This document shows, piece after piece, positions 5,269 to 46,873 of a stretch of DNA of 64,000 bases. The notes under the pieces are model-generated. The model saw nothing but the letters and a program-made list of their open reading frames with translations, was not told the DNA's origin and did no database searches. Source of the stretch: Candidatus Nealsonbacteria bacterium (lineage in GTDB: Bacteria; Patescibacteriota; Minisyncoccia; Minisyncoccales; JANBVM01). The translations under genes were made by a program, and so were the position numbers. Each line of letters starts with the position of its first letter. The first letter of the stretch is position 1. The stretch lies in assembly GCA_047456315.1 (NCBI GenBank), contig CP179889.1, forward strand, positions 384,776-448,775, read 5' to 3'.

Positions 5269-5277
5269 ACAAATTTA

Positions 5278-7446: not shown

Positions 7447-7976
7447 TGAAGAAATTGGGTGTTTTTGATTTAGAAAACATGGAAATACCTCCTAGGATTT
7501 ATAACTTTGATGAAAGAAAATGGGTTAAAAAACAAATTCCAGATGGTAAATTTCTTAAAACAGCTTCAGTAACTGAATTCTTAGAAAGAGCTGACAAGTT
7601 AATACTCTTGCCTAATTTAAAAACTCATTCATACGCTCAATTTACCGGGGCATTAAAACTCTCAGTTGGTTTTATGAGGCCGATTGAAAGGGTTCGTTTA
7701 CACCTGAAGAATCTACAGGAGAAAATAGCTGAATTGAATAAATTGATTAACCCTCATCTAATAATTATGGATGGGAGAAAGTGCTTTATAAATAAAGGGC
7801 CAGCTTCAGGGGAATTAGCTGAGCCAAACTTAATCCTTGCTTCAGAGAGTCGAATAGATATTGACGTTGAAGGAATAAAAATAATCCAGAGTTTTAAAGG
7901 CAATTCTTTGAAAAACATTAATCCTTTAGAAATGCCTCAAATTAAAAAAGCAATAGAATTTGGAATTGAACAATGA
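7446..7976 (+). CDS. DUF362-family protein, C-terminal part only (possibly truncated by insertion)
   Basis: Matches the DUF362 C-terminal half (LLPNLKTHSYAQFTGALKLSVGF...IIMDGRKCFINKGP). The N-terminal part expected for the family is absent. ATG overlaps the recombinase stop (TAATG). Confidence 0.55.
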   Translation: MKKLGVFDLENMEIPPRIYNFDERKWVKKQIPDGKFLKTASVTEFLERADKLILLPNLKTHSYAQFTGALKLSVGFMRPIERVRLHLKNLQEKIAELNKLINPHLIIMDGRKCFINKGPASGELAEPNLILASESRIDIDVEGIKIIQSFKGNSLKNINPLEMPQIKKAIEFGIEQ

Positions 7977-9247: not shown

Positions 9248-9313
9248 TTTAACAGGGCTAAAATAGTGATTTTAAAATTGACATGAACTTCGAAAGTAAT
9301 ATAATAAAATATT

Positions 9314-9481
9314 ATGAAAAGAGAATTTACAGCAGTTTATAAAAAAAGTGGAAAATGGTATTTAGGATGGGTGGAAGAAATTCCAGGCGTAAATACTCAA
9401 GGAAAAACTCTTAAAGAAACAAAAGAAAACCTTAAAGAGGCGCTTTTATTAATTTTAGAAACCAACCGTTTCATTAATTAA
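9314..9481 (+). CDS. HicB-like antitoxin (UPF0150) small protein
   Basis: 55 aa, FTAVYKKSGKWYLGWVEEIPGVNTQGKTLKETKENLKEAL pattern typical of the HicB N-terminal domain. Confidence 0.55.
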   Translation: MKREFTAVYKKSGKWYLGWVEEIPGVNTQGKTLKETKENLKEALLLILETNRFIN

Positions 9482-9489
9482 AAAACAAT

Positions 9490-9777
9490 ATGCGGAAAAC
9501 TAATTTACAATTTAAACTTTCAGTTTCTATGTTGCGGGAAGGCAAAAGATTTATTGCCTACACACCAACTCTTGATTTATCCACCTCTGGTAAAAGTTAT
9601 AAAGAAGCGAAAAAGCGATTTATAGAAATCGTTAATATTTTCTTTGAAGAGCTTGTTAAAAAAGGCACACTAAAAGAAGTTTTACAAGACTTAGGATGGA
9701 AAAAAAGTCAAAAAGAGTGGGTTCCGCCAATACTTATTTCTCAAGAGTCTGAAACCGTTCAGATTTCAATGAAATAA
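9490..9777 (+). CDS. HicB-like antitoxin family protein
   Basis: FIAYTPTLDLSTSGKSYKEAKKRFIEIV resembles the UPF0150/HicB fold. Directly precedes the hicA remnant. Confidence 0.5.
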   Translation: MRKTNLQFKLSVSMLREGKRFIAYTPTLDLSTSGKSYKEAKKRFIEIVNIFFEELVKKGTLKEVLQDLGWKKSQKEWVPPILISQESETVQISMK

Positions 9778-9778
9778 T

Positions 9779-10009
9779 ATGTCTCGTTTATCTCCCATTC
9801 ATTATAAAAAGTTTGAGAAATTTCTTTTATTTGTAGGTTGTTATTTCAAAAGAGAAAAAGGAGATCATTGAATATATTGGCGAGAAGATTTAAAAAGGCC
9901 GGTAGTTATTCCTCGTGACAAAGAGCTACCGATTTTTATTATCCGAAACAACTTAAGAGTTCTTGGTATTAGTCCTAAACAATATTTAGAGATTTTGAAA
10001 AGAATATGA
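9779..10009 (+). pseudogene. hicA-like toxin gene with in-frame TGA
   Basis: YcfA/HicA pattern KGDH*IYWRED..VVIPRDKELPIFIIRNNLRVLGISPKQYLEIL. In-frame TGA at 9869-9871 falls at the conserved GSH-H-x position. Confidence 0.6.
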
Positions 10010-10689
10010 TTACCTTAGCTGAAGTTAAAAAAAATCCATACATTTTAGAGTTTATTAAGCAAACTGAATTAGTTTTAAAAAAATCAGGATATACTGAGCA
10101 TGGCTTAGAACATTCAAGCTTGGTGGCTGATAGGGCAAGAACTATTGCCAAGGAAATTGGGCTTTCAGATCAAGAGCAGAAATTATCAGCCATTGCTGGG
10201 TTCTGTCATGATATGGGTAATTTCTTAAGCAGGAGTCATCACAATTATCTTGGTCCTATGCTTTTTTATCAGGTTTTCAGAGATGATTTCTTGCCAGAAG
10301 AAATTTCTTTGATTATGCAGGCAATTACTTTTCATGATAAAGAAGATATTTTGCCCCAACATGAAGATATCGAACTTCCAAGCTCTGTCTCAGCTGTTGT
10401 TATTTTAGCTGACAAATCAGATGTTCGTCGCTCAAGAGTAAATTCTAATAATGTTAATGACATTAAAAAAGACATTCATGATAGGGTAAATTATGCTACT
10501 GAATTTTCAAAACTTGGAATTAATAAAAAAAGAAAGAATATTAGTTTAACTTTAAAAATTGACACTAATTTTGTTCCTGTGATGGAATACTTTGAGATTT
10601 TTACTGATAGAATGATTTATTGCCGTAAAGCTGCAAAACATTTAGGTTATAAGTTTGGGTTGGTGATTAATAATTTTAAATTGCTTTAA
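10006..10689 (+). CDS. HD-domain phosphohydrolase
   Basis: GLEHS...GFCHDMGN (H...HD metal motif). 227 aa. Confidence 0.75.
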   Translation: MITLAEVKKNPYILEFIKQTELVLKKSGYTEHGLEHSSLVADRARTIAKEIGLSDQEQKLSAIAGFCHDMGNFLSRSHHNYLGPMLFYQVFRDDFLPEEISLIMQAITFHDKEDILPQHEDIELPSSVSAVVILADKSDVRRSRVNSNNVNDIKKDIHDRVNYATEFSKLGINKKRKNISLTLKIDTNFVPVMEYFEIFTDRMIYCRKAAKHLGYKFGLVINNFKLL

Positions 10690-14227: not shown

Positions 14228-14524
14228 TTATCTTAATAATTGTTTGATTCTTTCTGCTTCTTGTTCTACAACTTTCCCGTCATAATCAGCGCTGTGAGCC
14301 GGAGCGCCTTTGTAAACTGGCCTTCTTTGATCTAAATGTAAATTAAAAGATAACTCCTTTTCAGTTATTGTTAAATAAACATGGAATCTTGGATAACCGC
14401 CTCTTTCCAGGGGCCTTATAATATTTAATTCTTGTTTTTCTGTTTTACCTATATAAATGTAGCCGATTTTTCTGCTTAGAGTTGTAATATTGTCTCTTTT
14501 TGTGTTCTCAACAATGAATTTCAT
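14228..14524 (-). CDS. hypothetical protein
   Basis: 98-aa ORF. Start overlaps the mvaS stop by 4 nt; no motif recognised. Confidence 0.4.
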   Translation of the reverse strand: MKFIVENTKRDNITTLSRKIGYIYIGKTEKQELNIIRPLERGGYPRFHVYLTITEKELSFNLHLDQRRPVYKGAPAHSADYDGKVVEQEAERIKQLLR

Positions 14525-15693
14525 GTTAAATTCACTCCTCTTATTTTTTCCACAACACTATCTCGCCATTCTTGATACTGCTCGGAAGTCAATTCTTTAC
14601 CGTTTTTAATTTGATCAGTTAAATCACTTTGAAAACCAGTTTGAATTGATTGCCCCATTAAAGCTAAAGATCCTGAGCCTCCTCCGTAACCTATAATACA
14701 AATATTTTGATTGGCTTTAGCTTGCTCCAAAGTAGAGATTAATGAGATAAAGACAGAAACAGTGTAGCAGTTGCCAATGTAAGGATTATATTGAAGACCA
14801 GATTTTATTTTTTGTTCAAAAAATGCTTGAAAATCTAATGCTTTTCTTGTTCTGTTTAATATTTTTTTAAACTTGTTAAATGACTGGGGATTAGTCAAAC
14901 ATTCTTTTAGCAGTTCTAAGCCGCTTTTGTATTTTTCATAATACCAAAGAGCTGCTGAAGTCCAGACAATCATTTTAGTAAAGGGAGTATGCATAACAAT
15001 ATGGTCAGCTGTTTTTACAATTGAACCGCACTCTTGGTTTTTTCTTTTATAATCGTTAGTTGCATTAATTATGCATTCAATAAAAGCCGGTTTTGTTAAA
15101 GGGCCATTAACTTGCGGGAATGGAGCTGTATAAATTGGCACTCTGAAATCATTTATGTCTTTTGAATATTGTCCAAAGTTTTTAAAATCTAATGCTAATA
15201 GTTTTGGGTTTTGTTCTATTCTTATAGCTACCACACCAGATCCTTGAGTTACTTCTGCTTTTTTATCTTCATAAACTGAACGATCTGCTGCTATAACAAT
15301 AGCTGGTTTAGCGTGGGCTATAGCATATTCACAAGCTAATAATAGGGCTTGAACTCCTGAAAGACAGGCAAATTTTAACTGAAAAGGCACTACTGTAAGA
15401 TTAAGGTTTTTAATTGTTTTTATTCCTATTTCAGCTTTTGATATATCATAGTCTGACTCAGTGGCAATAAAAAATCTATCAACGCCTTGATAGTTTATTT
15501 TTTTTAATGCCTGAGTTATAAGCTGTTCTAGAGAGGTTTGATAGGGGATTCTGGCCTGAATTAGCCCTAATCCTCCGTTTACATATTCTATTGGAAGCTT
15601 GCTTTTTTTAGCTATTTTTTCCACACCAATAAACCACTCTGGAATTGAAACAGCTATTTCGCTTATTCCCACTTTTGGCACTAGTTGATTCAT
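14521..15693 (-). CDS. mvaS: hydroxymethylglutaryl-CoA synthase
   Basis: Aligns by eye with bacterial MvaS: ATESDYDISKAE, LKFACLSG (catalytic Cys), VIAADRSVY, TQGSGVVAI, DFRVP...VNGPLT. Confidence 0.8.
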   Translation of the reverse strand: MNQLVPKVGISEIAVSIPEWFIGVEKIAKKSKLPIEYVNGGLGLIQARIPYQTSLEQLITQALKKINYQGVDRFFIATESDYDISKAEIGIKTIKNLNLTVVPFQLKFACLSGVQALLLACEYAIAHAKPAIVIAADRSVYEDKKAEVTQGSGVVAIRIEQNPKLLALDFKNFGQYSKDINDFRVPIYTAPFPQVNGPLTKPAFIECIINATNDYKRKNQECGSIVKTADHIVMHTPFTKMIVWTSAALWYYEKYKSGLELLKECLTNPQSFNKFKKILNRTRKALDFQAFFEQKIKSGLQYNPYIGNCYTVSVFISLISTLEQAKANQNICIIGYGGGSGSLALMGQSIQTGFQSDLTDQIKNGKELTSEQYQEWRDSVVEKIRGVNLT

Positions 15694-35376: not shown

Positions 35377-35395
35377 ATGAATTCGTACATCTATT

Positions 35396-35404
35396 TTGTG
35401 TGAC
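35396..35404. repeat. variant copy of recurrent motif (TTGTGTGAC)
   Basis: One mismatch from TTGTGCGAC. Shares the ...GACATTT extension with the site at 45193. Confidence 0.4.
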
Positions 35405-35856
35405 ATTTTTTCATTTTTATTTAAAAAACCCATTGCTGGACAATTTGTTTTAAATTGAATTTTTTAAAACAGATAGGACAACATCTAGGACAAAAAGTTC
35501 TGAGATACTAAATCTTATTTAAGAATATTTAAACTTTAATTTAATCGTAATCTTTTATTCTTTATAAATGTTATTTAAAATATTATTTAGTCGAAAAACT
35601 AGAGCTTATAAAAGCCGAAAAAGAGCATGCTTGACAGCTTTATTTACATTATGATAGGGTTTCCTAAAGGCTCAATATTTCTTAATGACCCATCAAGAGA
35701 GGCTACAATGAAAATGTGGGAAATAAATAATTTTGAAATCAAAAATAAAGTCAATTAGAAGGGATTGGCTTTTTATTTTGTTTTAACAAAGGTCGACCTA
35801 AAGATAAAGGTAGATTAATTAGGAGAAAAATAATTAATTAAAATCAAAAAGAAATT

Positions 35857-36567
35857 ATGAAAAAACTAAAAAATTTACTTAAAAAGAGCCCTATTGCAAT
35901 GATTGTGATTGGTTTAGTAATAGCTAGTGTAGTTAGTGCTGCTTTAGTGGATTATTTAAGTAATACCATAAAAGCAAAAATAACAGTAGAATCACCAATG
36001 GCTGTAGGAATTTCATTAGGTCTTGAAAGTTGGGCAACAGCGAAATGTTACAGACCTGCTGGATGTCCTGCCCCAGCCGATTGGACTCCTGATATTCCAT
36101 TGGATTGTGATGACTATCCAGGTGGATGGGTAGATTGCTATCCAGCAAAATCACATAGTGAAAGTGATTGGACAAATACAGGAACACTTGTAATACCTGA
36201 CATTTATGGAGGAGAGCCATTAACACTCTACATAATGAGTGCAAATCTGGCAAATGCAACAACTACAGGATATGAGGAAATTATTATAACAAATCCATTA
36301 GGAGTAACTTGTGCAGACTTTGAGAGCATAACAAGCAGATATGATAGTATTTATGGCAGTCTTGGATATGGAGAAGAATCTGTGTGGACACCTGGTGATG
36401 GCGGATGTACTCAGGGAGAAGATGTAAACACCATACAGTTCGGTAGCACTGAATCAACATGGGGTGCAGGAGAAACAGATGTAAGTAAAATGGTAGTGAC
36501 ATTCAAGTCAAATGCATTAGGAACCTATACAGTAAAGACAAGAGTAGTTCCAGTAGTAGAATACTAA
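35857..36567 (+). CDS. putative secreted fibre/major subunit protein (TasA/pilin-like leader), copy 2
   Basis: MKKLKNLLKKSPIAMIVIGLVIASVVSAALVDYLSN leader. Carries a Cys-rich insert absent from copy 1. The C-terminal block GETDVSK.VVTFKSNALGTY is shared. Confidence 0.6.
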   Translation: MKKLKNLLKKSPIAMIVIGLVIASVVSAALVDYLSNTIKAKITVESPMAVGISLGLESWATAKCYRPAGCPAPADWTPDIPLDCDDYPGGWVDCYPAKSHSESDWTNTGTLVIPDIYGGEPLTLYIMSANLANATTTGYEEIIITNPLGVTCADFESITSRYDSIYGSLGYGEESVWTPGDGGCTQGEDVNTIQFGSTESTWGAGETDVSKMVVTFKSNALGTYTVKTRVVPVVEY

Positions 36568-36590
36568 TAGAGTAAGATAATAAAGAAAAC

Positions 36591-36655
36591 CTGATAGTTA
36601 TTCCTTGTATAGCTATCAGAGGTAGGTTTATTTTTTTGAAGTAAATCTACCTCTG
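36591..36655 (+). promoter_or_regulatory. conserved double hairpin between subunit gene and dockerin gene (copy 2)
   Basis: 10-bp stem 36591-36600/36610-36619 and 13-bp stem 36617-36629/36643-36655, ending 3 nt before the ATG. A:U in copy 1 is replaced by G:C here (compensatory). Confidence 0.55.
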
Positions 36656-36658
36656 ATT

Positions 36659-37366
36659 ATGAATAAAATATCAAAAAGTTTAATAGTTCTATTTTTAGCT
36701 TTTCTTTTTGGAAGTAGTTTTGGGATTTTTTCTATCCAAGCTCAAAATGATAAACTTATTTTAGAAGTAATTATGGAGTGTGATATTCAATATACAGGGA
36801 ATAGCTGTATTGCTGAATTAAAACTTACTAATAATACTGGTGAAATTCTTGACGGAGAAACATATTTACATATAGATTATAAGGGTATTTGTGGAGATGG
36901 TTTTTTTGATGGAGAAGGAATTGAAGCTCAATTTTCTATTACAGATAATAGTTGGTTAGACTTCTCGGGCTGGGAAAATGGAACAACAGCGGTTTCAGGT
37001 TTTGAAATTGCTAAGGATGAAACTCAATCAGAACTTAAAATAAAGACTGTTTCAAATCTTTGCCCAGGGGAATACATTTTCATTCTTGAATTAAAAGGAA
37101 CTACTGATAAAGAAGAATACATAACTCCACCAGTAGTGATAGGTGGTAGTGGTTATTATACTCCTCCTGTCTTTACTAGTAAGCTTAGCGAAGCTGCTCA
37201 GGCAGTTGATGCCAATAAAGATGATAAAATTGATGTTCTGGATTTTAATGTATTAATGATTAACTGGGGCAGTACAACAGCTGGCAATATAGCTGATTTT
37301 GACAGCGACGGAAAAGTTGATATTTTTGATTTTAATTTATTAATGATTCATTGGGTAAATCTATGA
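36659..37366 (+). CDS. secreted dockerin-domain protein, copy 2
   Basis: Signal peptide. C-terminal dockerin repeats DANKDDKIDVLDFNVLMINW and DFDSDGKVDIFDFNLLMIHW. Confidence 0.75.
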   Translation: MNKISKSLIVLFLAFLFGSSFGIFSIQAQNDKLILEVIMECDIQYTGNSCIAELKLTNNTGEILDGETYLHIDYKGICGDGFFDGEGIEAQFSITDNSWLDFSGWENGTTAVSGFEIAKDETQSELKIKTVSNLCPGEYIFILELKGTTDKEEYITPPVVIGGSGYYTPPVFTSKLSEAAQAVDANKDDKIDVLDFNVLMINWGSTTAGNIADFDSDGKVDIFDFNLLMIHWVNL

Positions 37367-38121
37367 AAATTATGAATAAAACTATATTTACGGTTATATT
37401 AGGAGTATTAGGAACAGCAGTCTTAGCAGCGCCTGTGTTGGCATCTACTGCTCTTTCACTTTTACCAACAAACATTAATGTTGCTCAAGGGCAAAATTTC
37501 AGTCTGGTAACAGCAATCAACCCTCAAGGCGTTAATAATTATACGCTTAAATTAGAGCTTCAATATCCAGCCGACCTTTTAGGGGTGAAAAGATTTACTT
37601 TGGCAAATAACTGGATGGCGCTTTCAGAGCAGGGATATGATTTGATTGATAATGAAAACGGGCTTCTTATTAAAACAGCTGGTTATCCTGGAGGCGTTTC
37701 TGAACCTATAACCTTTGGTATTATTTCATTTTCAGCTAAAAAAACCGGAAGCGGAGTTATTAAAGTAGGGGATAATTCTTTTGTCCTTGACGCAACTAGT
37801 CAAGATGTTCTAAACGGCGTATTAGCTCAAACATCTATTGTAATAACATCACCAACATCAGAATCCGAGCCTGAGCCTGAACCAATATCAGAAGAACTAG
37901 AAGAACCAGAAGAGGTGATAATAGAAACTGTTTCTACGTCTACACAAGCTGAAGGCGATGAACAAACTTCAACATTAATAGGACAAACAACTTTCTTAGC
38001 GGCAATCGGTAATATCTTATCTCTTGGAACTAATAATGTTTGGCTGGCTCTTTTCGTAGGGCTGATAATCTTGGCAATTCTAATCTATTTTATTCTAAGA
38101 TTACGTCGTAAAAAATCTTAA
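37363..38121 (+). CDS. cohesin-like surface anchor protein, copy 2
   Basis: ATG 37363 overlaps the upstream TGA (ATGA). Signal peptide, cohesin-like domain, acidic linker, C-terminal TM + RLRRKKS. Confidence 0.65.
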   Translation: MKIMNKTIFTVILGVLGTAVLAAPVLASTALSLLPTNINVAQGQNFSLVTAINPQGVNNYTLKLELQYPADLLGVKRFTLANNWMALSEQGYDLIDNENGLLIKTAGYPGGVSEPITFGIISFSAKKTGSGVIKVGDNSFVLDATSQDVLNGVLAQTSIVITSPTSESEPEPEPISEELEEPEEVIIETVSTSTQAEGDEQTSTLIGQTTFLAAIGNILSLGTNNVWLALFVGLIILAILIYFILRLRRKKS

Positions 38122-38135
38122 AGGAGAAACTCATA

Positions 38136-38160
38136 AAAATCGCTCTTTGAGCGGTTTTTT
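38136..38160 (+). terminator. intrinsic terminator
   Basis: CGCTC-TTT-GAGCG stem-loop flanked by an A-run and followed by GTTTTTT. Confidence 0.7.
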
Positions 38161-38191
38161 AATAGAATAATAAAGGGTCACTCAATCTATG

Positions 38192-38200
38192 TTGTGCGAC
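38192..38200. repeat. recurrent motif copy TTGTGCGAC
   Basis: Intergenic, between the cassette-2 terminator and the first gene of the defence island. Confidence 0.6.
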
Positions 38201-38304
38201 GTTAACTTGATTTCGGGAAAAAATAGAAATATTATTAAATATAGATATGATCAATTTTTCAGAAAAAATAATTTTTTACAAGCAGGCTTTTTGAAATTAT
38301 TAAA

Positions 38305-38712
38305 ATGCAAGTAAAAAAAATCACTCATAGGACGCTACAAAAACTTATACAAAAGATTGCCGATAAAGCCGGTTATGACATTTTAGACAATAGACGGCTT
38401 GTTTTTAACAGGAATCCATCTCTTTATTATCAACCAGACCTAACGCTTCTTAAGAAAAGTTCACTTATTGTGGTTGAGGTTGAATTAACAACAGATAGCA
38501 GGAAATCACTAACTGGCGACATAGTGCGTGCAGGACTATCTGGCGCAAAAACATTTATAGGTATCGTGAAAGACTCAAAAACAGCCAATGCCATAGAAAA
38601 ATATGGAGAAGTATTAACGGATCGTATTTGTGAAATGTCTGAACTAAAAACTTATGGTCTCGCGGTTAATGATAGAGAATTTGTTGATAAATTAAAATTA
38701 ATGTTAAAATAA
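38305..38712 (+). CDS. small hypothetical protein, possible PD-(D/E)xK nuclease-like fold
   Basis: 135 aa. YYQPDL...LIVVEVELT resembles a PD...ExE/K core. Assignment is weak. Confidence 0.4.
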   Translation: MQVKKITHRTLQKLIQKIADKAGYDILDNRRLVFNRNPSLYYQPDLTLLKKSSLIVVEVELTTDSRKSLTGDIVRAGLSGAKTFIGIVKDSKTANAIEKYGEVLTDRICEMSELKTYGLAVNDREFVDKLKLMLK

Positions 38713-38719
38713 AAAACAT

Positions 38720-40435
38720 ATGGAGTTTAAAAAAGAACATCCATTATATTTCGAATCTAGTGGACGATTAGTGATTATTCTCGGAAGAGAATCCATTTCT
38801 AATCCTAATATAGCCCTGCTTGAAGTGATTAAAAATTCTTATGATGCAGACGCTAAAGAAGTTGATTTGACCTTTAAAAATCTTACTAAACCTCTTCACG
38901 AGAATGAAGTTATTATCGCTGATGATGGAAATGGTATGACAGAAGAAAACATCAAGCAGTACTGGATGAAACCGGCCACTGACAATAAGTTGCACGACCC
39001 TTTTACTAAGAAATATAAACGTCGTAAAATCGGTGAAAAGGGAATTGCTAGATTCGCGCTTTCTACTTTAGCCAAAGAAATCACACTTACCACGAAACCA
39101 GCCGGGAAATTAAAAGGTTATCAATTATATATTAACTGGCGTGAATTCGAACAAGAAGGGGGTTCTTTTGAAAAAATTCCCATTAGCTTTAAATCTTTTA
39201 GGAAAAAGAAGGCAGAACATGGCACTATAATTAAATTATCGACCTTGCGATTTAAATGGAATAAAGAACGCCTAAACAAATTTATCCGAGAAGTTGAAAT
39301 GATTACCCCGCCCACTGCGAAAGTAGATAATTTTAAAATTTCTGTGCATGTTCCTGATTTTCCTGATATAAGCGATCAAGCTTTAAAGAATAAATTTTTG
39401 AAGATTGCACCATACTGCTTTACAGCAACGCTCAATAAAAAAGGATTTTTGACTTATCGTGCTAAAACCCCTAAATCGAATAAGAAATATGGACCAGAAA
39501 AGACCACAAGATATTCATGCGGCCCAGTAGAATTTAGTTTTTGGTTTTTGCCTAGAAATAAAGGTAATTATGATGTTCTTGGTATCGATCTAAAGAGAAT
39601 TAAAATAGAAGAAATAAAGAAATTTCTCGATGAGTGGGGAGGTATAAAACTATATCGTGATGACTTGAGAGTAAAGCCATATGGAGATTTTGGGAACGAC
39701 TGGTTGGGACTTGAATCGTTGAGAATTAACGATCCGAGTGTTATGCCAGGCAATGATCAGGTTTGTGGCTATGTGAAGATTACTCGAAAAGATAATCCAG
39801 AAATAATCGATACCTCAACCCGAGAAGGAATTATCAACAATGTTGCTTTTCGGGATCTAAAGCAATTTTGTACAGAAGCGGTTAATTTTTTCGGCACTAT
39901 CAGAAAAGTTGTTGAGGAAAAAAGGGAATTTAAAAAGAAAGGTAAACGTAAGAAAAAAATAAAAGAACTGCAGAAACTGACGATACTTGGGCCCAAGGAA
40001 ACTTTTCTCGATTTCGGCAGGAAATATCCTGAGGTCTTTTACGTAAGACTTGAAAGCGAAATCAACCATGCTTTCCGCTATAATTTGCCCAACGCCTCAC
40101 TTATGCTTGCCAGAAAAATGGTGGAAAATCTGGCTTACAATCTAATGGAAGAAAAATTTGCTAGCAATAAAGGATTAAGATGGGATATTAAAAGAGACCG
40201 ACCATTGGGTTTTGCTAGATTGATAAGAAATCTTTCTGATAACGCATCATATTTTGATGGAGAGCAAAAAGTGCTCGTAAAAAAACTTATAAAGTTGATA
40301 AACATATTTAGAAGAGAGGCAAATCTTAAGGTTCATCAGATCATTGATTATCTTGAAGATAAAGAAGAGCTTAAATTGCTAAAAATACCAGATATAGTAG
40401 AAATTTTACTTAAACTAATTCGAAAAAATAAATAA
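38720..40435 (+). CDS. GHKL (HATPase_c/MORC-like) ATPase
   Basis: Bergerat fold boxes: N box LLEVIKNSYDADA, G1 IIADDGNGM, G2 IGEKGIARF. The C-terminal helical region resembles DUF4145-type modules of R-M proteins. Confidence 0.75.
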   Translation: MEFKKEHPLYFESSGRLVIILGRESISNPNIALLEVIKNSYDADAKEVDLTFKNLTKPLHENEVIIADDGNGMTEENIKQYWMKPATDNKLHDPFTKKYKRRKIGEKGIARFALSTLAKEITLTTKPAGKLKGYQLYINWREFEQEGGSFEKIPISFKSFRKKKAEHGTIIKLSTLRFKWNKERLNKFIREVEMITPPTAKVDNFKISVHVPDFPDISDQALKNKFLKIAPYCFTATLNKKGFLTYRAKTPKSNKKYGPEKTTRYSCGPVEFSFWFLPRNKGNYDVLGIDLKRIKIEEIKKFLDEWGGIKLYRDDLRVKPYGDFGNDWLGLESLRINDPSVMPGNDQVCGYVKITRKDNPEIIDTSTREGIINNVAFRDLKQFCTEAVNFFGTIRKVVEEKREFKKKGKRKKKIKELQKLTILGPKETFLDFGRKYPEVFYVRLESEINHAFRYNLPNASLMLARKMVENLAYNLMEEKFASNKGLRWDIKRDRPLGFARLIRNLSDNASYFDGEQKVLVKKLIKLINIFRREANLKVHQIIDYLEDKEELKLLKIPDIVEILLKLIRKNK

Positions 40436-40449
40436 TAGCTTGTATATAA

Positions 40450-41382
40450 ATGCAGAAGAATCTCATCGAGCTTTTTTGCGGGGCAGGAGGAATAAGTGAA
40501 GGCTTTAAGAATGCCGGTTTTAAAATATTATTGGGGATAGATATAAACCCCGTTTATCTATCTAGTTTTGCTGTGAATCATCCGAACGCGGAAACTTTAT
40601 GCGATGATATCCGCCATATAAACGGATCGACGATAAAAAAATATGTGGGAGAGAAAAAAATTTACGCAATAGTCGGCGGTCCACCATGTCAAGGATTTAG
40701 TGTCGCCAGAAAGAGAAATGTAAAGGATTCACGTAATAACTTGCCGTTGGAGTTTTTAAGAATAGTTAATGAGATCCGTCCCAGATGGTTTGTCTGTGAA
40801 AATGTGGTAGGAATATTAACAGCAAAATTACCTAGCGACATCTTGGTTAAAGATAGATTTATTGGGAAGGCAAAAAAAATTGGTTACAAAACAGAATATA
40901 GGATATTAAATGCTGCATATTTTGGAGTACCACAAAATCGCAGGAGAGTCATATTCATAGGTACTCGCCTCAATAAAAAAATTAGATTTCCATCACAAAA
41001 AGGAAATAAAACAAATTTATCATGGAAGATATTAACTAAAAAGCACTTAGTTCCCAAAAATTTATTTTACTCAAAAAAACTTATTAAAGGATTTCAGAAA
41101 AGAGAAAAAGATAATAGAAAAAAGGGTCTCGGTTTTAGGTGGCAATTTTTAAAACCTAAATCTCCTTCATATACTATTCCAGCGAGGTACTGGAAAGATG
41201 GTTCAAATGCGTTGGTTAAATATAAAGATGGATCTATAAGGATGCTTACAGAAGAGGAATGCTCTAAGATTCAAGGCTTTCCCCAAAATTATACTTTTCT
41301 TGGCAATAAAAGAAAGAGATATGAGCAAATTGGAAATGCTGTACCTCCCTTATTAGCCGCAGCGATTGCAAGGGAAATATAA
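40450..41382 (+). CDS. dcm: DNA (cytosine-5)-methyltransferase
   Basis: Motifs I FCGAGG, IV GGPPCQGFS, VI ENV, VIII QNRRRV, X GNAVPP. Confidence 0.93.
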   Translation: MQKNLIELFCGAGGISEGFKNAGFKILLGIDINPVYLSSFAVNHPNAETLCDDIRHINGSTIKKYVGEKKIYAIVGGPPCQGFSVARKRNVKDSRNNLPLEFLRIVNEIRPRWFVCENVVGILTAKLPSDILVKDRFIGKAKKIGYKTEYRILNAAYFGVPQNRRRVIFIGTRLNKKIRFPSQKGNKTNLSWKILTKKHLVPKNLFYSKKLIKGFQKREKDNRKKGLGFRWQFLKPKSPSYTIPARYWKDGSNALVKYKDGSIRMLTEEECSKIQGFPQNYTFLGNKRKRYEQIGNAVPPLLAAAIAREI

Positions 41383-41401
41383 AAAGTTTGTCGATAGACA
41401 T

Positions 41402-41812
41402 ATGACTGATGTACATACAACAACACAAAGATCTCGAAACATGTCAGCAATTAAAGGAAAAGGAAATCAAAGCACAGAAATCGCTTTTTTACGATTGCTT
41501 AAAAAGAATAAAATTACGGGCTGGCTACGACATTATAGATTTCTCAGAGGTAAGCCAGATTTTGTTTTTGTTGGCAAAAAAATTGCCATTTTTATTGATG
41601 GATGTTTCTGGCATGGTTGTCCGAAATGCAAGCTAGAGCCAGTAACAAACAAGAGGTTTTGGGCAGAAAAGATATCAATCAATAAGAAAAGGGATGTTGC
41701 CGTGTCGAAAGAGATAAAAAAAGCAAACTGGCTAGTGCTCCGTTTCTGGGAACATCAGATTAAAAAAAATCCCAAATCAGCAATAAAAAAACTAAAAAAA
41801 TACCTTAATTAG
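41402..41812 (+). CDS. vsr: very short patch repair endonuclease
   Basis: TTQRSRNMSAIKGKGNQSTE, LRGKPDFVF, AIFIDGCFWHGCPKC. ATG 41402 preferred over 41366. Confidence 0.9.
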   Translation: MTDVHTTTQRSRNMSAIKGKGNQSTEIAFLRLLKKNKITGWLRHYRFLRGKPDFVFVGKKIAIFIDGCFWHGCPKCKLEPVTNKRFWAEKISINKKRDVAVSKEIKKANWLVLRFWEHQIKKNPKSAIKKLKKYLN

Positions 41813-41840
41813 AAGACTTCAAATCAATCTTTATAAAAAA

Positions 41841-41864
41841 GTCGCACAAGGTATATTACACGAC
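41841..41864. repeat. recurrent motif copy in palindromic context (GTCGCACAA-GGTATA-TTACACGAC)
   Basis: 9-bp arms, 6 of 9 symmetric, separated by 6 bp. Opposite orientation to the copy at 38192. Confidence 0.6.
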
Positions 41865-41922
41865 GAAAAAACCATCCTTTACAGATGGTACAAAAGATAA
41901 TTCTTTTAGTTTCTAATTGCTT

Positions 41923-43266
41923 TTATTCAAATGTTCTTATATCAGGAATGGGCTTGTTATATTGGTCTAAGATTTCTCCCACTAATGGCACTATTACATT
42001 CGTTCTATAAAAGTATGTTTGTTCTGATGACATTTCGGTAATAACAGGGAATACAAGAGAGGGGACTAATATTTCAGCTGTATCCATTTTGTTTTCTGAC
42101 CTTTGCCACATTCTTACTAAACTTACTTCAGGGGTTCCAAGTTCTAAATCTAAGGTTTTTACAGCATTAGGATAAGTATAGTTTTTAAACAATCCTCCGT
42201 CTTCAGCAAAGGATATAATTTTATCCTTATTCGTTTCTTTAGCGTATTTTGAGCTTTCAAAAGTATTTGTAACAATACTATATACATTTACTACTTTTTT
42301 ATGTCTCAAGCTTACACTTACATTCATACCATATTTCTGTCCTCCTTGATCATAAATGATTTGGTCATCAATCTTGAGCGGATAAACAATTGGAATGTTT
42401 TCAGGAATAACTCCTCCTATTCCTGCATGCTTTGTAACTTCTCCTTTTTCATACAAATCTGTATTAATGCCGTATTCAGCAAGGAATTTATCTGAAATAG
42501 AAAGCAATTCTTCATCTGTTAACATTTCTGCTGGTGTATCAAACTCTTCTCTTGGCCATTTTTCCCAATTTGCATTAATAGACAATGAATTTTGCCTTGG
42601 GTAAATGTAAATAGAGTATCCAAAGTCACGATTTTCTGAAATTTCTATGTTGCCGATTTTAACATTCTGAAACTTATTAAGATTTAGAACGTTTAAATCA
42701 AGATTATTTGCAACGTTTGAAAGTGCTTTGTTTAAGAAATCTCCTTTCAACATTTTATAGACAGTGATTTGACCGCTATCAAGAGTGAAATCATCTCCAG
42801 CATATATAAAGTTGTAATTTACCATTTCTGGTGATACTACTCCCATTATTTCTCCGTTCCCGCCTCCGCCTCTTCCTGAAGTGTCAGGACTTTGAACTTC
42901 CTGCGAGAAAGAAAGATCTCCAAAAGCATTTTCACCAAGATCGTTTATTGCTAATTTGCCATTTTCTTGCGGTAAGTTTGTGATTATAATTGCACAAACT
43001 ATGATGGCTATTCCTACTAAAGCGTAGGTAAATTTTTTGTTGAATAATGTGTTGAACATGTTTGTGTGGGGTTTTATGCTACTTAATAATTTTGCTCTTT
43101 CAATTATTTTTACGCGGAGCTCCCGAACAAATTGTTCATCAATTTTACTTTCCGGTTTTGAGCGTAAAAGTTCTTGAATGATTTTAATTAATGTTTTTTC
43201 ATGCATTTTAAGACTTTGATCAATTAAATATACGTCTCTTAAAATTTGTTTTATTTGTTTGTCCAT
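41923..43266 (-). CDS. putative anti-sigma factor / single-pass membrane protein
   Basis: Directly downstream of the ECF sigma gene. About 80 aa cytoplasmic N-terminus, one TM (FTYALVGIAIIVCAIIITNL), large extracytoplasmic domain. Confidence 0.5.
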   Translation of the reverse strand: MDKQIKQILRDVYLIDQSLKMHEKTLIKIIQELLRSKPESKIDEQFVRELRVKIIERAKLLSSIKPHTNMFNTLFNKKFTYALVGIAIIVCAIIITNLPQENGKLAINDLGENAFGDLSFSQEVQSPDTSGRGGGGNGEIMGVVSPEMVNYNFIYAGDDFTLDSGQITVYKMLKGDFLNKALSNVANNLDLNVLNLNKFQNVKIGNIEISENRDFGYSIYIYPRQNSLSINANWEKWPREEFDTPAEMLTDEELLSISDKFLAEYGINTDLYEKGEVTKHAGIGGVIPENIPIVYPLKIDDQIIYDQGGQKYGMNVSVSLRHKKVVNVYSIVTNTFESSKYAKETNKDKIISFAEDGGLFKNYTYPNAVKTLDLELGTPEVSLVRMWQRSENKMDTAEILVPSLVFPVITEMSSEQTYFYRTNVIVPLVGEILDQYNKPIPDIRTFE

Positions 43267-43296
43267 ATTTGTTAAATTTTAGCTTCTATTATTTAA

Positions 43297-43321
43297 TACG
43301 ATATGTTTTTAAAAAAGTAAC
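43297..43321 (-). promoter_or_regulatory. ECF-type promoter GTTAC-N16-CGTA (upstream of anti-sigma gene)
   Basis: Minus strand GTTAC (43317-43321), 16 nt, CGTA (43297-43300). Shares about 35 nt of similarity with 43869-43893. Confidence 0.5.
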
Positions 43322-43839
43322 ATAGCTACAAATACTGATAATGGCATTTGTTCTTTTAATATTTTAATTGTTCTTGAAAATGCCATTTTACAACTAGCTT
43401 CACTTTTACCCATTGCTTCAGAAATCTCTTTGTATGACATCCCTTCCCAAACACGCAGAATAACAATTTCACGCTGCTCGCTTTTCAATGTTTTTAGATA
43501 TTCTTTAACATCTTCTAATCTCTTTGCTGTATCTAAATCACGTAATATATCTTCATCTGTAGATAAATCCCATATATCATCAATATTAATGCTGTTTTTT
43601 TTAGTTCTGTAAAAATCAATAACAGTGTTTCTAGCAATCTGATATATCCAGGTTGAAAAAGATCCCTTGCTTTCATCAAATCTATCAAGCTTATTTAATG
43701 CTTTAATAAAAGTGTCACTGGTTAAATCTTCTGCTGTTTCTTTATGATGGGTTTTGTAATAAATAAAATTAAAAATCTTCTTTATGTATTTATCATAAAG
43801 CTGGCCGAAATTATCTCTATTTACTTTTTCGTCTAACAT
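43309..43839 (-). CDS. ECF (sigma-70 family) RNA polymerase sigma factor
   Basis: Region 2 (DLTSDTFIKAL..FSTWIYQIARN) and region 4 (MSYKEISEAMGKSEASCKMAFSR). Confidence 0.9.
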   Translation of the reverse strand: MLDEKVNRDNFGQLYDKYIKKIFNFIYYKTHHKETAEDLTSDTFIKALNKLDRFDESKGSFSTWIYQIARNTVIDFYRTKKNSINIDDIWDLSTDEDILRDLDTAKRLEDVKEYLKTLKSEQREIVILRVWEGMSYKEISEAMGKSEASCKMAFSRTIKILKEQMPLSVFVAMLLF

Positions 43840-43868
43840 TTTACTAAAATTAGCGTTCTTTAATTTAA

Positions 43869-43893
43869 TACGATAGAATAATGGAAAGGTAAC
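43869..43893 (-). promoter_or_regulatory. ECF-type promoter GTTAC-N16-CGTA (upstream of sigma gene)
   Basis: Minus strand GTTAC (43889-43893), 16 nt, CGTA (43869-43872). About 30 nt before ATG 43839. Confidence 0.5.
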
Positions 43894-43990
43894 TTTATTA
43901 TACTAAAATTAGTATTGTAATTGGAGGCTTTCTTGCAATTCTGACATACAATATAATCAAAAGAAAAAAAAGAAGTAAAAAAGTTAGATT

Positions 43991-45145
43991 ATGAAGAAGA
44001 TATATTTAGATATTCTTAAATTCACGAAGCAATTAGTAGAGACGCCGTCTCAAAACGGAATTGATTCCGAAAAGAAAATGGCTGATATAGTTTTTAAGAA
44101 ACTATCTTCTTTTGGGTTTTCTCCAAAAATCATAGGGAGTAAAAAGCATGCTTCTGTGTTTTGTAAAATTACTAAGAATCCAAAAAGCAAAACCATCTGG
44201 TTAGAATCTTGTCTTGATACTGTTTCAGTAGGGAATGTTTCAAAATGGAAATATCCTCCATTAAAAGCTACTATCAAGGGCTCAAAGATGTATGGGAGAG
44301 GAGTGGCTGATTCTAAAGTGGGAATTGCTATTTTTTGTTATTTAGCTAAAGAACTTTACGGTGACTCGAGCTTTAAAGGTAATATTATTCTTGGTTTTGA
44401 TGCTAATGAGCAGAGTGGAGAATATAGTGGTATACGAGATATTGTAAAAACACAGAAACCAAAAGCTGATGTCTGTATTTTAGGGTATCAAGGCATAGAT
44501 GAAATTTCTATTGGAATGAGAGGTTGGTTAAGGTTAAAAATTATTACTAAAGGAAAATCGACTCATACGGGAAGTAGAAGTAAAAAAGGCAATAACGCTA
44601 TTCATCAAATGGTAGAGGTTATTACCGCTTTAAGGAAATTAGATCTTGAAGGTAAAAAAGAACCATTTTTTAATTACGGCTCTGCTTTTAATGTGTCACT
44701 CGTTAAGGGCGGTATTGCGATAAACATTGTTCCCGACGAATGTGAGATAAAGATTGATATAAGATTTTTGCCTTCACAGACCAAACAAGAGATTCTAGAT
44801 AAAATATCCAAAACATTAAAAGAATTAAGGAAGAAAAACCCTAATATTCATTATGAGATAGAATTTTTGCGATGCGAGCCCTCTTTCTTAACCAATCCTA
44901 AGGATAAATTTGTAAAATTATTACAGAGAACCGCACAAAAAGAACTTAAAAGAAAAATTCCTTTAGTTAGCAGTGGAGCAGGAAGCGTAGGAAGTGTTAT
45001 AAATAAGCTTGATATCCCAATAATAAATTCTTTTGGGTGTAAAAATAATAATGTTCACGCTTCAAATGAATGGATAGACATTAGCACTATCCCTAAAGTT
45101 TTTGAGATTTATAGAAAGGCAATCTTAGAATTTTGCAAGCGCTAA
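43991..45145 (+). CDS. M20-family metallopeptidase (ArgE/DapE-like)
   Basis: GRGVADSKVGIA block and the dimerisation-domain pattern. 384 aa. Confidence 0.8.
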   Translation: MKKIYLDILKFTKQLVETPSQNGIDSEKKMADIVFKKLSSFGFSPKIIGSKKHASVFCKITKNPKSKTIWLESCLDTVSVGNVSKWKYPPLKATIKGSKMYGRGVADSKVGIAIFCYLAKELYGDSSFKGNIILGFDANEQSGEYSGIRDIVKTQKPKADVCILGYQGIDEISIGMRGWLRLKIITKGKSTHTGSRSKKGNNAIHQMVEVITALRKLDLEGKKEPFFNYGSAFNVSLVKGGIAINIVPDECEIKIDIRFLPSQTKQEILDKISKTLKELRKKNPNIHYEIEFLRCEPSFLTNPKDKFVKLLQRTAQKELKRKIPLVSSGAGSVGSVINKLDIPIINSFGCKNNNVHASNEWIDISTIPKVFEIYRKAILEFCKR

Positions 45146-45192
45146 TTCTTGATTATTTTTCTGTGACTTCACTGGTAAAAAATAATCTTAAT

Positions 45193-45205
45193 ATTGTGCG
45201 ACATT
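45193..45205. repeat. 13-bp inverted repeat ATTGTGCGACATT (left)
   Basis: Perfect reverse complement at 45724-45736. Contains the recurrent TTGTGCGAC core. Confidence 0.75.
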
Positions 45206-45369
45206 TAATAGGCGAGAGAAAATCGTTAGGGTAGGGAACTATAACTTTTTTGTTTTTGAAGGATAATCCACTATTGACAAACCTTCTGGGTTTTTTTATT
45301 TTAAAGTAAAGATTTATTTAGGTCTTTTAAAAAACAAAAAAACATAAAGGAGGTGACTGCTAAAGAGTC

Positions 45370-45636
45370 ATGTCTATATTATTTTGTAAAGGATGCAGCA
45401 ATCAACTCCTAAAATTTAAAGGAGGAAAAAGGTTTGCAGAATTGGTTGTGGTTAAAAAAAATATAAAAGGGAAGTGGGTTGAGGTGAGAAATAAAAAACC
45501 TGAGGAAGGAGTTGAAAAAGATGAAAAGATTTTTTTTAAATGTCTTAATTGTGATTTTCTTAATGAGCTTCCGGAGTATATCTCCAGAAGAATACAGAAA
45601 ACGAAAAAAATAACTCCACTGCATCCTAAAATATAA
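45370..45636 (+). CDS. small zinc-ribbon protein
   Basis: CKGC...CLNC pairs, AAGGAGG RBS, own terminator. Confidence 0.5.
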   Translation: MSILFCKGCSNQLLKFKGGKRFAELVVVKKNIKGKWVEVRNKKPEEGVEKDEKIFFKCLNCDFLNELPEYISRRIQKTKKITPLHPKI

Positions 45637-45669
45637 AACCGTTAGCTAATATAACTAACGGTTCTTTTT
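45637..45669 (+). terminator. intrinsic terminator
   Basis: AACCGTTAG / CTAACGGTT 9-bp stem followed by CTTTTT. Confidence 0.7.
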
Positions 45670-45683
45670 AGCGAGGGGAGTGC

Positions 45684-45711
45684 TTGACACCGTGTTTTGG
45701 CACGGTACAAT
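45684..45711 (+). promoter_or_regulatory. sigma70-like promoter facing the tyrosine recombinase gene
   Basis: TTGACA 45684-45689, 16 nt spacer containing the palindrome ACCGTG..CACGGT, TACAAT 45706-45711. Confidence 0.6.
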
Positions 45712-45723
45712 ATATATAGATAT

Positions 45724-45736
45724 AATGTCGCACAAT
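45724..45736. repeat. 13-bp inverted repeat AATGTCGCACAAT (right)
   Basis: Reverse complement of 45193-45205. Lies 13 nt downstream of the -10 element. Confidence 0.75.
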
Positions 45737-45796
45737 GATGGTAAAGCGACATATAATATATATAAATTAGACCACTTCCCTAAAAGCCCTAAAAAA

Positions 45797-46753
45797 ATGA
45801 AAAAATCAAAGACCCCAATAATAAGCCATATTTCTGATTTCTTAGATTATTGTGAAGTTGAAAAGGGTTTATCTGATAAAACCCAAGAAAATTATAAAAG
45901 ATATTTAAATAAATTTGTTTTTTGGTTAGAAAAGGCAAAAAATGAAAAACTACTGCCCCATCAATTAACAGCTGATCATATTTGGAAGTATCGCCTATTT
46001 CTATCTCGTTTTAATACATATAAAGGTAAGCCACTTAAGAAAATCACCCAAAACTACTATCTTATCGCTCTCAGGGCCTTTTTAGGCTATTTTTCATCAA
46101 AAGACATACAATCACTTCCTGCAGATAAGATAAAGCTTCCCAAAGACGCTAAAAGGGATAAAGCTATTAAATTCCTTAATTTAGAGCAAATTGAAAAGTT
46201 TTTAAAGTCCCCTAGTCATAACACTAGAATTGGCTTAAGAGATAAGGTTATTTTAGAGTCATTATTTTCAACAGGTCTTAGAATTGCAGAGCTTGTTGCT
46301 TTAAATAAAGAGCAATTCTCTAATGTCCAAAAAAAGAAAGATTTAGAGCTTTCAGTTATTGGCAAAGGTGGATCTGCTAGAACAGTATATTTTTCAGAAA
46401 GAGCATTAGATTGGGTTAAAAAATATTTAGATTCACGTAAAGATAAAGAAAAAGCTTTATTCATTCATTATAGAGCTAAGAAAGGTTCAGATAGTCGACT
46501 TACCTCTCGTTCCATTCAAAGATTAGTTAAGAAGTATGCAATTTTATCTGGAATTCCAGTTTTCACTACCCCGCACACACTTAGGCACTCAATGGCAACT
46601 GATCTATTAAACCAAGGAGTTGACTTAAGGACTATTCAAGAATTTTTAGGCCATAGAAGTATTACCTCTACTCAAATCTACACTCATGTGACAAGTAAAC
46701 GTTTAAGAGAAATTCATCGTAAGTTCCATAGTGGCAAGAGATTAAAAGGATAA
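45797..46753 (+). CDS. tyrosine recombinase, XerC/XerD-like
   Basis: N-terminal SAM-like domain (FLDYCEVEKGLSDKTQENYKRYL). Catalytic region RIAEL, HTLRHSMAT, LGHRSITSTQIYTH. The ORF-track GTG start overlaps the promoter, so ATG 45797 is preferred. Confidence 0.9.
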   Translation: MKKSKTPIISHISDFLDYCEVEKGLSDKTQENYKRYLNKFVFWLEKAKNEKLLPHQLTADHIWKYRLFLSRFNTYKGKPLKKITQNYYLIALRAFLGYFSSKDIQSLPADKIKLPKDAKRDKAIKFLNLEQIEKFLKSPSHNTRIGLRDKVILESLFSTGLRIAELVALNKEQFSNVQKKKDLELSVIGKGGSARTVYFSERALDWVKKYLDSRKDKEKALFIHYRAKKGSDSRLTSRSIQRLVKKYAILSGIPVFTTPHTLRHSMATDLLNQGVDLRTIQEFLGHRSITSTQIYTHVTSKRLREIHRKFHSGKRLKG

Positions 46754-46755
46754 AA

Positions 46756-46783
46756 AACACTAATTCTCTACCCTAGTGTTTTT
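46756..46783 (+). terminator. intrinsic terminator
   Basis: AACACTA / TAGTGTT stem with an 11-nt loop and a T-run. Confidence 0.6.
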
Positions 46784-46798
46784 GTGTCCTAAATAAAC

Positions 46799-46824
46799 GT
46801 CGCACAATATATAAGGTTGCACAA
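46799..46824. repeat. tandem copies of recurrent motif (GTCGCACAA, then GTTGCACAA)
   Basis: Two direct copies with starts 17 bp apart. Lies between the recombinase terminator and the second ECF sigma gene. Confidence 0.6.
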
Positions 46825-46873
46825 TGTAACCTTTTTTAGTTAAAGTTACATATTATTAGTGTAAAGCAAAATA

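Follow-up and report, generated by a model that had tools for sequence, protein, structure and literature searches.

Xer-type sites around the xer gene of a Candidatus Nealsonbacteria-type bacterium: a probable dif and a likely island of dif modules beside it

We analysed a 64-kb stretch of chromosomal DNA (the window) from a Candidatus Nealsonbacteria-type bacterium of the Candidate Phyla Radiation (CPR), in which a nine-nucleotide word, GTCGCACAA/TTGTGCGAC, recurs around xer, the gene for an Xer-family tyrosine recombinase. Our comparisons indicate that this 9-mer is likely to be the strongly conserved arm of Xer sites, that is, of a dif and of a dif-module island lying beside it. The region also encodes MurG, GluRS, a type II restriction-modification (R-M) unit and two extracytoplasmic function (ECF) sigma factors. 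An identical Xer protein is encoded by CP179890.1, a chromosome of 675,639 bp, and the closest other xer loci are labelled Candidatus Nealsonbacteria or other Patescibacteria.

We observed five exact copies of the 9-mer in the window, at 38192 (-), 41841 (+), 45194 (-), 45727 (+) and 46799 (+), and none elsewhere, where 0.09 copies are expected. Five or more copies were reached in none of 100 dinucleotide shuffles. An initial annotation of this DNA had given the same positions and orientations, had estimated well under one expected copy and had proposed a shuffled-sequence control; the exact scan and the shuffles confirm it. Its statement that the word recurs only in intergenic DNA, and its impression from a non-exhaustive scan that no copy lies outside 35.4-46.8 kb, also hold for the exact copies within the 64-kb window (5/5 intergenic). 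The 45727 copy lies within the longest open reading frame (ORF) starting at GTG 45680, yet 5' of the true xer start, which we place at ATG 45797 because the 318-aa product from that ATG is the called gene in the complete genome CP179890.1. The one-mismatch copies are at chance level, with four beyond the exact ones (10427, 35396, 46816 and 46907) against about 4.2 expected for all copies with at most one mismatch, and each was therefore judged on its context. The two that had been listed initially, 35396 and 46816, both exist, while the two others sit in genes (10427 and 46907). The 46816 copy was rejected as a member of the family, as it is part of a separate palindrome, AAGGTTGCACAATGTAACCTT (46813-46833), that accompanies a sigma-factor gene.

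The comparison set comprised 80 xer loci from species-representative genomes, 80 from metagenomes, L001 and the window (162 sequences, 2.0 Mb; loci and contigs are referred to by L numbers). These loci contained 197 exact 9-mers, 80% of which lay outside ORFs, a fraction that makes up 11.5% of the DNA when the coding part is counted on ORFs of at least 90 aa. In about 100 related genomes the motif goes together with xer, and its arrangement follows a fixed pattern: 48 loci have a (+) copy no more than 200 nt upstream of the gene, 54 have one no more than 200 nt downstream, and 35 have a (-) copy 0.2-2.5 kb upstream. The exact word was present in nearly all loci with an Xer at least 65% identical to that of the window, and it fades below this. 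The sites fall into three classes, A, B and C (Table 1); an alignment of the flanks had been suggested initially as a way to derive the full site.

Class A has the consensus GTCGCACAA TGTAGG/TGATGG TAAAGCGAC and is represented in the window by site A, whose left arm includes the 45727 copy. Its outer 7 nt are palindromic and its two inverted arms surround a 6-bp centre, matching the layout of dif. The second arm matches at 6/9 positions in a 9-6-9 arrangement, which becomes 11-6-11 if extended. Site A begins 14 nt past the -10 box of the predicted xer promoter and ends 45 nt before the xer ATG; in related loci the class A site likewise lies between the promoter, there of the form TTGACA-N16/17-TATTAT, and the xer start. 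A loose dif-like pattern had a match no more than 200 nt before xer in 124 of 140 loci, where 0.008 would be expected. The class A arms shift with the Xer lineage (e.g. GTCGCACAA, TTCGCATAA and CGTCGTATAA), and in more distant lineages the position of site A is occupied by ACTTCGCATAA TGTAGC TTTACCGAAGT, GTTCGCATAA TTATAC TTAAGCGAAC or CGTCGTATAA CATAGA TTAAGAGACG, whose likeness to dif is plain from a comparison with the E. coli dif sequence given in the initial annotation. Set beside the dif consensus (..GCGCATAA-N6-TTATG..), the left arm of site A, CGCACAA, is off at one inner base and the right arm reads TAAAG in place of TTATG; the site of relatives reads TTCGCATAA-N6-TTTACC or TTAAGC.

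The cumulative GC skew of the window climbs to a maximum at 45.5-48 kb and then declines, and gene orientation flips there too. With xer placed on the + strand, the skew changed from positive on its left to negative on its right in 39 of the 41 related loci with long flanks. Going by GC skew and gene orientation only, we read the window as spanning the replication terminus. Because of the upstream dif-like site in most loci and the skew switch at xer, site A is the best candidate for dif, and it is probably the chromosomal dif. This dif adjoins xer in the window and across related loci. The Xer-site reading of the initial annotation is supported in its core idea, but the location of the terminus and the probable dif at 45727 had been missed. 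A dif adjacent to the recombinase gene at the terminus is described as a hallmark of XerS/difSL and XerH/difH (PMC5357621).

In some other lineages (L024, L035, L038, L014, L005, L028, L040, L072, L073 and L043) we noticed, within the 150 nt that precede xer, that the leader past site A contains the reverse complement of the centre and right arm of A and, after it, a second conserved hairpin, GCAGATTTTGC...GCAAGAATCTGC. In those lineages a stem could therefore form from half of the dif-like site.

Class B has the consensus AATAAAT GTCGCACAA TATTAA, with zero conservation at the expected position of the second arm (48 sites). One copy lies 3' of xer and an inverted copy upstream, and in the window the two inverted B elements bracket a core consisting of a small 88-aa gene, site A and xer. 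Species whose Xer is as little as about 64% identical still have the B half-site on either side of the gene, amid intergenic DNA that is otherwise unrelated. In the closest relatives a hairpin lies on the core side of each B arm, with a 10-bp stem showing compensatory changes at four pairs and a conserved 9-nt loop. All copies had initially been placed at module boundaries; for 45194 and 46799 this has to be amended, since neither has a second arm and both are clade-wide half-sites of the dif-xer core rather than module-specific sites. The loop of the B hairpins reads TTCYCTACY, and the A-run and T-run flanks resemble a bidirectional terminator, for which, if plain, a conserved loop would be unusual.

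The C sites, C1 at 38192 and C2 at 41841, are full 9-6-9 sites with second-arm matches of 7/9 and 6/9. The description of 41841 as a 9-6-9 palindrome was borne out, as an imperfect one. The second arm at 35396 is weak. Together with the B(-) half-site these sites delimit three units in the window, 35381-38200, 38177-41864 and 41841-45209. The R-M module is bounded by inverted sites with unlike centres, CATAGA (-) and GGTATA (+), while the site at its left neighbour's outer border, 35381-35404, is in direct orientation with 38177-38200. The strong arms point into the R-M module and the xer core, and the weak arms into the block between them. Both centre classes recurred with unrelated flanks in other species. 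CATAGA was seen in L002, L004, L015, L016 and L087, and GGTATA in L001, L002, L004, L011, L016 and L116. CATAGA sites are (-) to the left and (+) to the right of xer (3 and 3 cases) and GGTATA sites are reversed, giving a mirror symmetry. Arrays of site-bounded modules were seen in L004, L008, L016, L087, L117 and L127. The modules carry R-M systems, radical-SAM enzymes, methyltransferases, HIT, TspO, secreted cysteine-rich proteins, sigma/anti-sigma pairs and peptidases.

Abutting sites were also seen. L015 contains a segment of about 1.2 kb (14321-15596) with inverted repeats of at least 90 nt at its ends, each holding two abutting Xer-like sites with the centres CATAGA and TATGTT; the segment is a candidate for a unit that inverts or is exchanged. 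In L008, three Xer-like sites (centres GACATA, GATGCG and GATGTC) abut within 70 nt at 4083-4152, and more lie at 1861-5614.

We then come to the comparison of strains, which the initial annotation had recommended, and which showed that gene-content differences start at the sites (L001, L155, L004, L082, L083 and L002). gltX, which encodes GluRS, is linked to xer on its left in 96 of 103 loci, mostly 0.5-1 kb away. The gap in the window, 10.9 kb, is by far the largest (the next is 4.0 kb), so that the stretch from about 35.4 to 45.2 kb is taken as inserted material, i.e. some 9.8 kb of accessory modules between gltX and xer. Against L155, which is without the insertion, homology extends only to 35389, a position that falls in the weak arm of the site at 35396. 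L001 has the same Xer protein and flanks that are 97-98% identical, with different genes in the R-M slot, as is also the case in L002. Homology between the window and L001 starts at the first base of the 41841 site; its strong arm is one base off, and its centre and weak arm are identical. At B(+), the junction 46815/46816 recurs in four relatives: L004 has 9 kb inserted there, L082 and L083 have 1.2 kb, and in L002 the sequence is replaced. Insertions in relatives begin at the outer edge of the B half-sites. In L085, a four-gene module of 4.2 kb lies between two complete B(-) elements in direct repeat, which differ in the outer arm, the left one matching that of the window and the right one that of L001. 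The last gene of this module is the gene beside B(-) in L001, and a HAD-gene module is common to both loci in different arrangements. Comparable arrays lie on the other side of xer in L087, L005 and L004. The relatives differ in the content of modules and not in their orientation.

gltX was found to the right of xer, on the - strand, in seven distant lineages (L071, L072, L075, L076, L079, L080 and L051), with the skew polarity relative to xer kept.

The sites were also present in phages. IMG/VR was queried with the arm, the centre and one further base, leaving the second arm unspecified, and the contigs retrieved also hold this unspecified second arm. The GGTATA class was found in the phage contigs L207, L210 and L211, L207 carrying a perfect GTCGCACAA GGTATA TTGTGCGAC and L210 the second arm TTTTGCGAC. 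The CATAGA class was found in L202-L204, with GTCGCACAA CATAGA TTGTGCGAT in L202 and the second arm TTGTACGAC in L204. By our own estimate, the chance probability of each pair of 7/8 or 8/8 second-arm matches is of the order of 1e-6. Terminase, portal, major head, collar or endolysin proteins are encoded by L207, L211, L210, L203, L198 and L185, and these six contigs, all with full sites, are therefore tailed phages. The phage-borne sites could serve integration or simply multimer resolution, and the phages may have an integrase of their own beyond the parts of the contigs that were read. A B-type 16-mer gave 38 IMG/VR matches, mostly half-sites, with a second arm only in L183, L198 and perhaps L186; these matches are largely compatible with chance, and the phage argument was therefore not built on them. 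In the tailed phage L203 (4645-6980), the CATAGA-class site (5881) lies between two divergent transposase-like genes.

When we examined the recombinase itself, we observed that its NCBIfam scores were highest for XerC (219 bits) and XerD (216 bits), both under the equivalog cut-offs, and that it belonged neither to XerS (104 bits, cut-off 267) nor to XerA (189 bits, cut-off 220). In a PDB search the best match was E. coli XerD (134 bits, E 6.7e-38), followed by XerA and then XerH (50 bits, E 2.3e-12). The integron-integrase model TIGR02249 reached 86 bits against a cut-off of 265, with the match limited to residues 273-341. No second Xer-like recombinase gene was found within the 64-kb window, and no recombinase domain in any module gene of the window. 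A second recombinase gene lies near xer in 7 of the 162 loci (L125 at 7962-10423; L156 and L158; L041/L161, L090 and L140), either as a close tandem copy (61-76% identity) or as a distant one (about 31%), and might be an XerC/XerD-like partner in those lineages. The spacer of the xer promoter (45689-45707) is an inverted repeat, CCGTGTTTTGGCACGG, whose sequence varies by locus while its self-complementarity is kept (e.g. ggcc-tttt-ggcc); it could be an embedded terminator or a binding site.

Table 1. Sites, genes and modules of the dif-xer region (positions in the window)
Feature	Position	Strand	Description
Degenerate Xer-type site	35381-35404	-	(-) read GTCACACAA AATAGA TGTACGAAT; left border of the inserted region and of module 1
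Module 1	35405-38176	+	three function-unassigned genes (35857-36567, 36659-37366, 37351-38121); the 'surface cassette' of the initial annotation
C1 site	38177-38200	-	(-) read GTCGCACAA CATAGA TTGAGTGAC; full 9-6-9, between the module 1 terminator and the R-M module
Module 2	38201-41840	+	type II R-M unit: 135-aa protein, GHKL-ATPase restriction enzyme, Dcm methylase, Vsr
C2 site	41841-41864	+	GTCGCACAA GGTATA TTACACGAC; full 9-6-9, between convergent genes
Module 3	41865-45187	.	composite: 447-aa anti-sigma-like gene and ECF sigma gene (-), M20 peptidase gene (+)
B(-) element	45188-45245	-	TTAATA TTGTGCGAC ATTTAAT (45188-45209), then hairpin (45224-45245); left core boundary
Small gene	45370-45636	+	88 aa, CxxC...CxxC motifs; within the core, closest relatives only
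Predicted xer promoter	45684-45711	+	sigma-70-type, TTGACA-N16-TACAAT; conserved in related loci
Site A	45725-45752	+	ATGTCGCACAA TGATGG TAAAGCGACAT; 11-6-11, 28 bp, in the xer leader; left arm includes the 45727 copy
xer	45797-46753	+	318-aa Xer-family tyrosine recombinase; Pfam Phage_integrase 2.1e-38
B(+) element	46756-46813	+	hairpin (46756-46780), then AATAAAC GTCGCACAA TATATA (46792-46813); right core boundary

The genes of module 1 had no Pfam, NCBIfam or PHROG match. L002 and L003 match the 3' end of the third gene (37985-38170), and both contigs start inside that gene. A 43-nt direct repeat (84% identical, 87 nt apart) at 37226-37355 inside the module 1 genes suggests a repeated protein motif. 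The four-gene R-M unit of module 2 has homologues at 62-72% identity in other CPR lineages, in other genomic contexts. One of these, in L217 (6296-6760), adjoins a tRNA gene, the 3' end of which is present there as a direct repeat, and this cargo seems to have arrived by the classical tRNA-targeted route. Movement of the R-M module with the sites is thus unsupported by its homologues (other lineages, other contexts, no motif, one beside a tRNA gene). In the window itself no tRNA genes were found when searched for as integration targets, nor did any Rfam family reach threshold within 34-50 kb, and a known RNA or tRNA target was rejected. By a PHROG scan the module cargo of the window is not phage-like.

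Module 3 contains a recurrent breakpoint at 43907-43915 where there is no Xer-like site, common to the comparisons with L001, L083, L084, L085 and L155. Upstream of the M20 peptidase gene, 43907-43980 is what is left of the 3' end of a small ORF, which L155 has intact (about 2263-2510). In L016 the sigma/anti-sigma pair is found on the opposite side of xer. To the right of the core, the palindrome AAGGTTGCACAATGTAACCTT, which holds the 46816 copy, accompanies the ECF sigma gene in L003, L004, L082 and L083, and it stays by this gene in relatives where 1.2-9 kb part the gene from the B site. It is probably the sigma gene's own promoter/operator, or a terminator.

How such sites may work can be proposed by analogy. 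Xer would bind the strong arm and recruit a second subunit to the other arm. At site A, strand exchange across the 6-bp centre would resolve chromosome dimers, as in other Xer systems, and the position of the site in the xer leader may provide feedback on xer expression. The inverted B half-sites, with their TATTAA-like centre, would act as docking points flanking the dif-xer core, at which a crossover in the centre would insert incoming DNA bearing a matching site; this would explain why everything beyond the B centre is variable. Full sites with other centres (CATAGA, GGTATA and AATAGA) would part the accessory modules, like centres joining DNA molecules. A module enclosed by unlike sites in inverted orientation would thus stay in place but could be exchanged with a replicon bearing the same pair, such as a phage, another chromosome or an excised circle. 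In Acinetobacter, Xer sites by adaptive genes are often inverted and have divergent centres, and only like centres recombine, giving cointegrates and not excisions (PMC11705084); linear 'dif module islands' are described on Acinetobacter chromosomes (PMC12907356). Binding and cleavage by Xer, the requirement for like centres, the use of half-sites and the Xer-driven movement of modules are all steps that we infer here from sequence.

A further-reaching proposal is that in this CPR clade the terminus may be a dedicated, polar gene-capture platform, in which the host Xer would insert and swap modules and tailed phages by matching centres (TATTAA, CATAGA and GGTATA), with the two inverted half-sites as docking sites. 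We put this forward tentatively, as a possibility that we consider less likely than not. If true, it would amount to an integron-like or cassette-exchange system that works with heterospecific sites, the phages would be of the tailed kind and exploit Xer, and the arm sequence would predict which phages infect which CPR hosts.

The reading of the 9-mer as an Xer-site arm, with the copies at module borders as dif-like targets of the neighbouring Xer, had been offered initially, and it is supported by the tracking of xer, the co-variation of the arms, the breakpoints and the phage copies. Several observations weigh against it. As the B sites have no second arm, a route of recombination there is hard to see. 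On its right the inserted region ends, at 43906/43907, in the remnant of a small gene and not at a site. The coincidence of breakpoints with sites is less striking than it looks, because tight gene packing confines breakpoints to short intergenic stretches. Among the 161 related loci we found no complete homologue of any module 1 gene and no second copy of the R-M module of the window, and the R-M homologues in other CPR lineages are not flanked by the GTCGCACAA motif. Finally, no homologue of the structural genes of the site-bearing contigs was found beside xer in the 162 host loci, so that integrated prophages at this position were rejected. The missing module copies and the off-site junction also favour the most serious rival, namely that the extra copies are inert attL/attR scars of past Xer-exploiting integrations at or near dif, and that only site A is functional. 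The weak or missing second arms at 35396, 45194 and 46799 and a degenerate B remnant in L004 point the same way. Scars would not be expected, however, to keep a B half-site on both sides of xer amid unrelated intergenic DNA, or CATAGA and GGTATA classes amid unrelated flanks, nor do they fit the duplication of the B element around the L085 insertion, and we consider this explanation unlikely.

The initial annotation had named an operator for a local regulator as its alternative, and a transcription factor (Xer or another local regulator) controlling xer and its neighbours would suit the intergenic position of all copies and the closeness of site A to the -10 box. We disfavour it and give it little weight: the genes on either side of the 41841 site converge, and three sites directly follow terminators, with no gene to control, and an operator accounts neither for the dif anatomy (two arms, 6-bp centre), the skew switch and the adjoining xer, nor for copies that coincide with homology breakpoints, are duplicated around an insertion and occur in phage contigs. 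A promoter was rejected as well, several copies having no downstream gene. Autoregulation at site A is possible and fits the interpretation as Xer sites. The 22-nt ends and hairpins of the B pair do enclose the small gene, dif and xer as an inverted repeat, the R-M module does lie between inverted sites, and L015 has its segment with long inverted repeats; the B pair might on these grounds be the terminal repeats of a mobile or invertible xer cassette, or inverted site pairs might be DNA-inversion switches. Both are very unlikely in our opinion. The core is fixed in its linkage to gltX, its skew switch and its constant polarity, and a mobile cassette was rejected on this account, which also speaks against frequent inversion; the CATAGA and GGTATA centres flanking the R-M module should not recombine together (PMC11705084), and relatives vary in module content and not in orientation. 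The least probable of the explanations, which we hold to be barely credible, takes the sites as polar elements that organise the terminus, as a Ter-like fork trap or as stops for a DNA translocase. The mirror symmetry of the B, CATAGA and GGTATA sites about xer and their clustering at the skew switch suggested it, but the numbers are small (6 and 10 sites), the symmetry is explained more simply by oriented insertion at inverted B sites or by selection for genes co-oriented with replication, and the sites match the arms of a dif-like site and have phage copies that such elements would hardly explain.

CPR/Patescibacteria have tiny genomes and cannot be grown alone, and to our knowledge there are no genetic tools for them. 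If the interpretation as Xer sites is true, it marks the terminus and the dif of a large CPR clade, and Xer-site-bounded modules, known mainly from Acinetobacter plasmids, also shape a reduced chromosome. Uncultivated phages could then be assigned to hosts by a short lineage-specific sequence, and DNA might be inserted into these organisms by way of a natural site-specific docking system.

Among known systems, the arrangement resembles XerS/difSL of streptococci and lactococci and XerH/difH of Helicobacter and Campylobacter, in which dif adjoins the recombinase gene at the terminus as one module (PMC5357621). The protein of the window is, however, nearer to XerC/XerD than to XerS by NCBIfam (219 vs 104 bits) and far closer to XerD than to XerH in the PDB search (134 vs 50 bits). 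The centre is 6 bp here against 11 in difSL, and unlike the XerS and XerH modules the core is also bracketed by two conserved inverted half-sites.

The pdif sites and dif modules of Acinetobacter share with our loci small accessory modules between Xer sites that are often inverted and differ in their centres, compatibility classes of centres common to replicons, and linear multi-module arrays (PMC11705084, PMC12907356). The array described here differs in being chromosomal, directly beside dif-xer at the terminus, and in a CPR bacterium, and it has 'strong' and 'weak' forms of a single arm sequence in place of separate XerC and XerD arms. The Acinetobacter hallmark of identical modules in different contexts was not found for the modules of the window among the 161 related loci.

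A likeness to integrons lies in the tyrosine recombinase gene adjoining an array of variable units that are parted by its sites. Integron identity is excluded by the recombinase score and the type of site: the integron-integrase signature is missing (86 bits vs 265), and the sites are short double-strand 9-6-9 palindromes (24 bp), not attC hairpins. The units also lie on both sides of the recombinase gene and have their own promoters and terminators.

There is some likeness to integrative mobile elements exploiting Xer (IMEX), in that integrase-less inserts lie between dif-like direct repeats beside the terminus (the L085 module and the 35381-38200 cassette of the window), and phage genomes carry matching sites. 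Examples of IMEX are CTX-phi, TLC-phi, the gonococcal island and Legionella LME-1. Unlike in IMEX, insertion is at the flanking half-sites or at other centre classes and not in dif itself (site A), the cargo in the window is not phage-like, and the site-bearing phages are tailed, none having been seen integrated in the host loci.

The literature found covers XerS, XerH, XerA, the Legionella system, IMEX and the Acinetobacter modules, and our full-text literature searches returned no description of dif/Xer sites, termini or Xer-dependent mobile DNA in CPR/Patescibacteria. What is new here is a probable xer-dif module with a likely dif-module island in a new phylum-level group, the type of layout itself being already known; the inverted half-sites, which are conserved, and the sharing of site classes with tailed phages set it apart.

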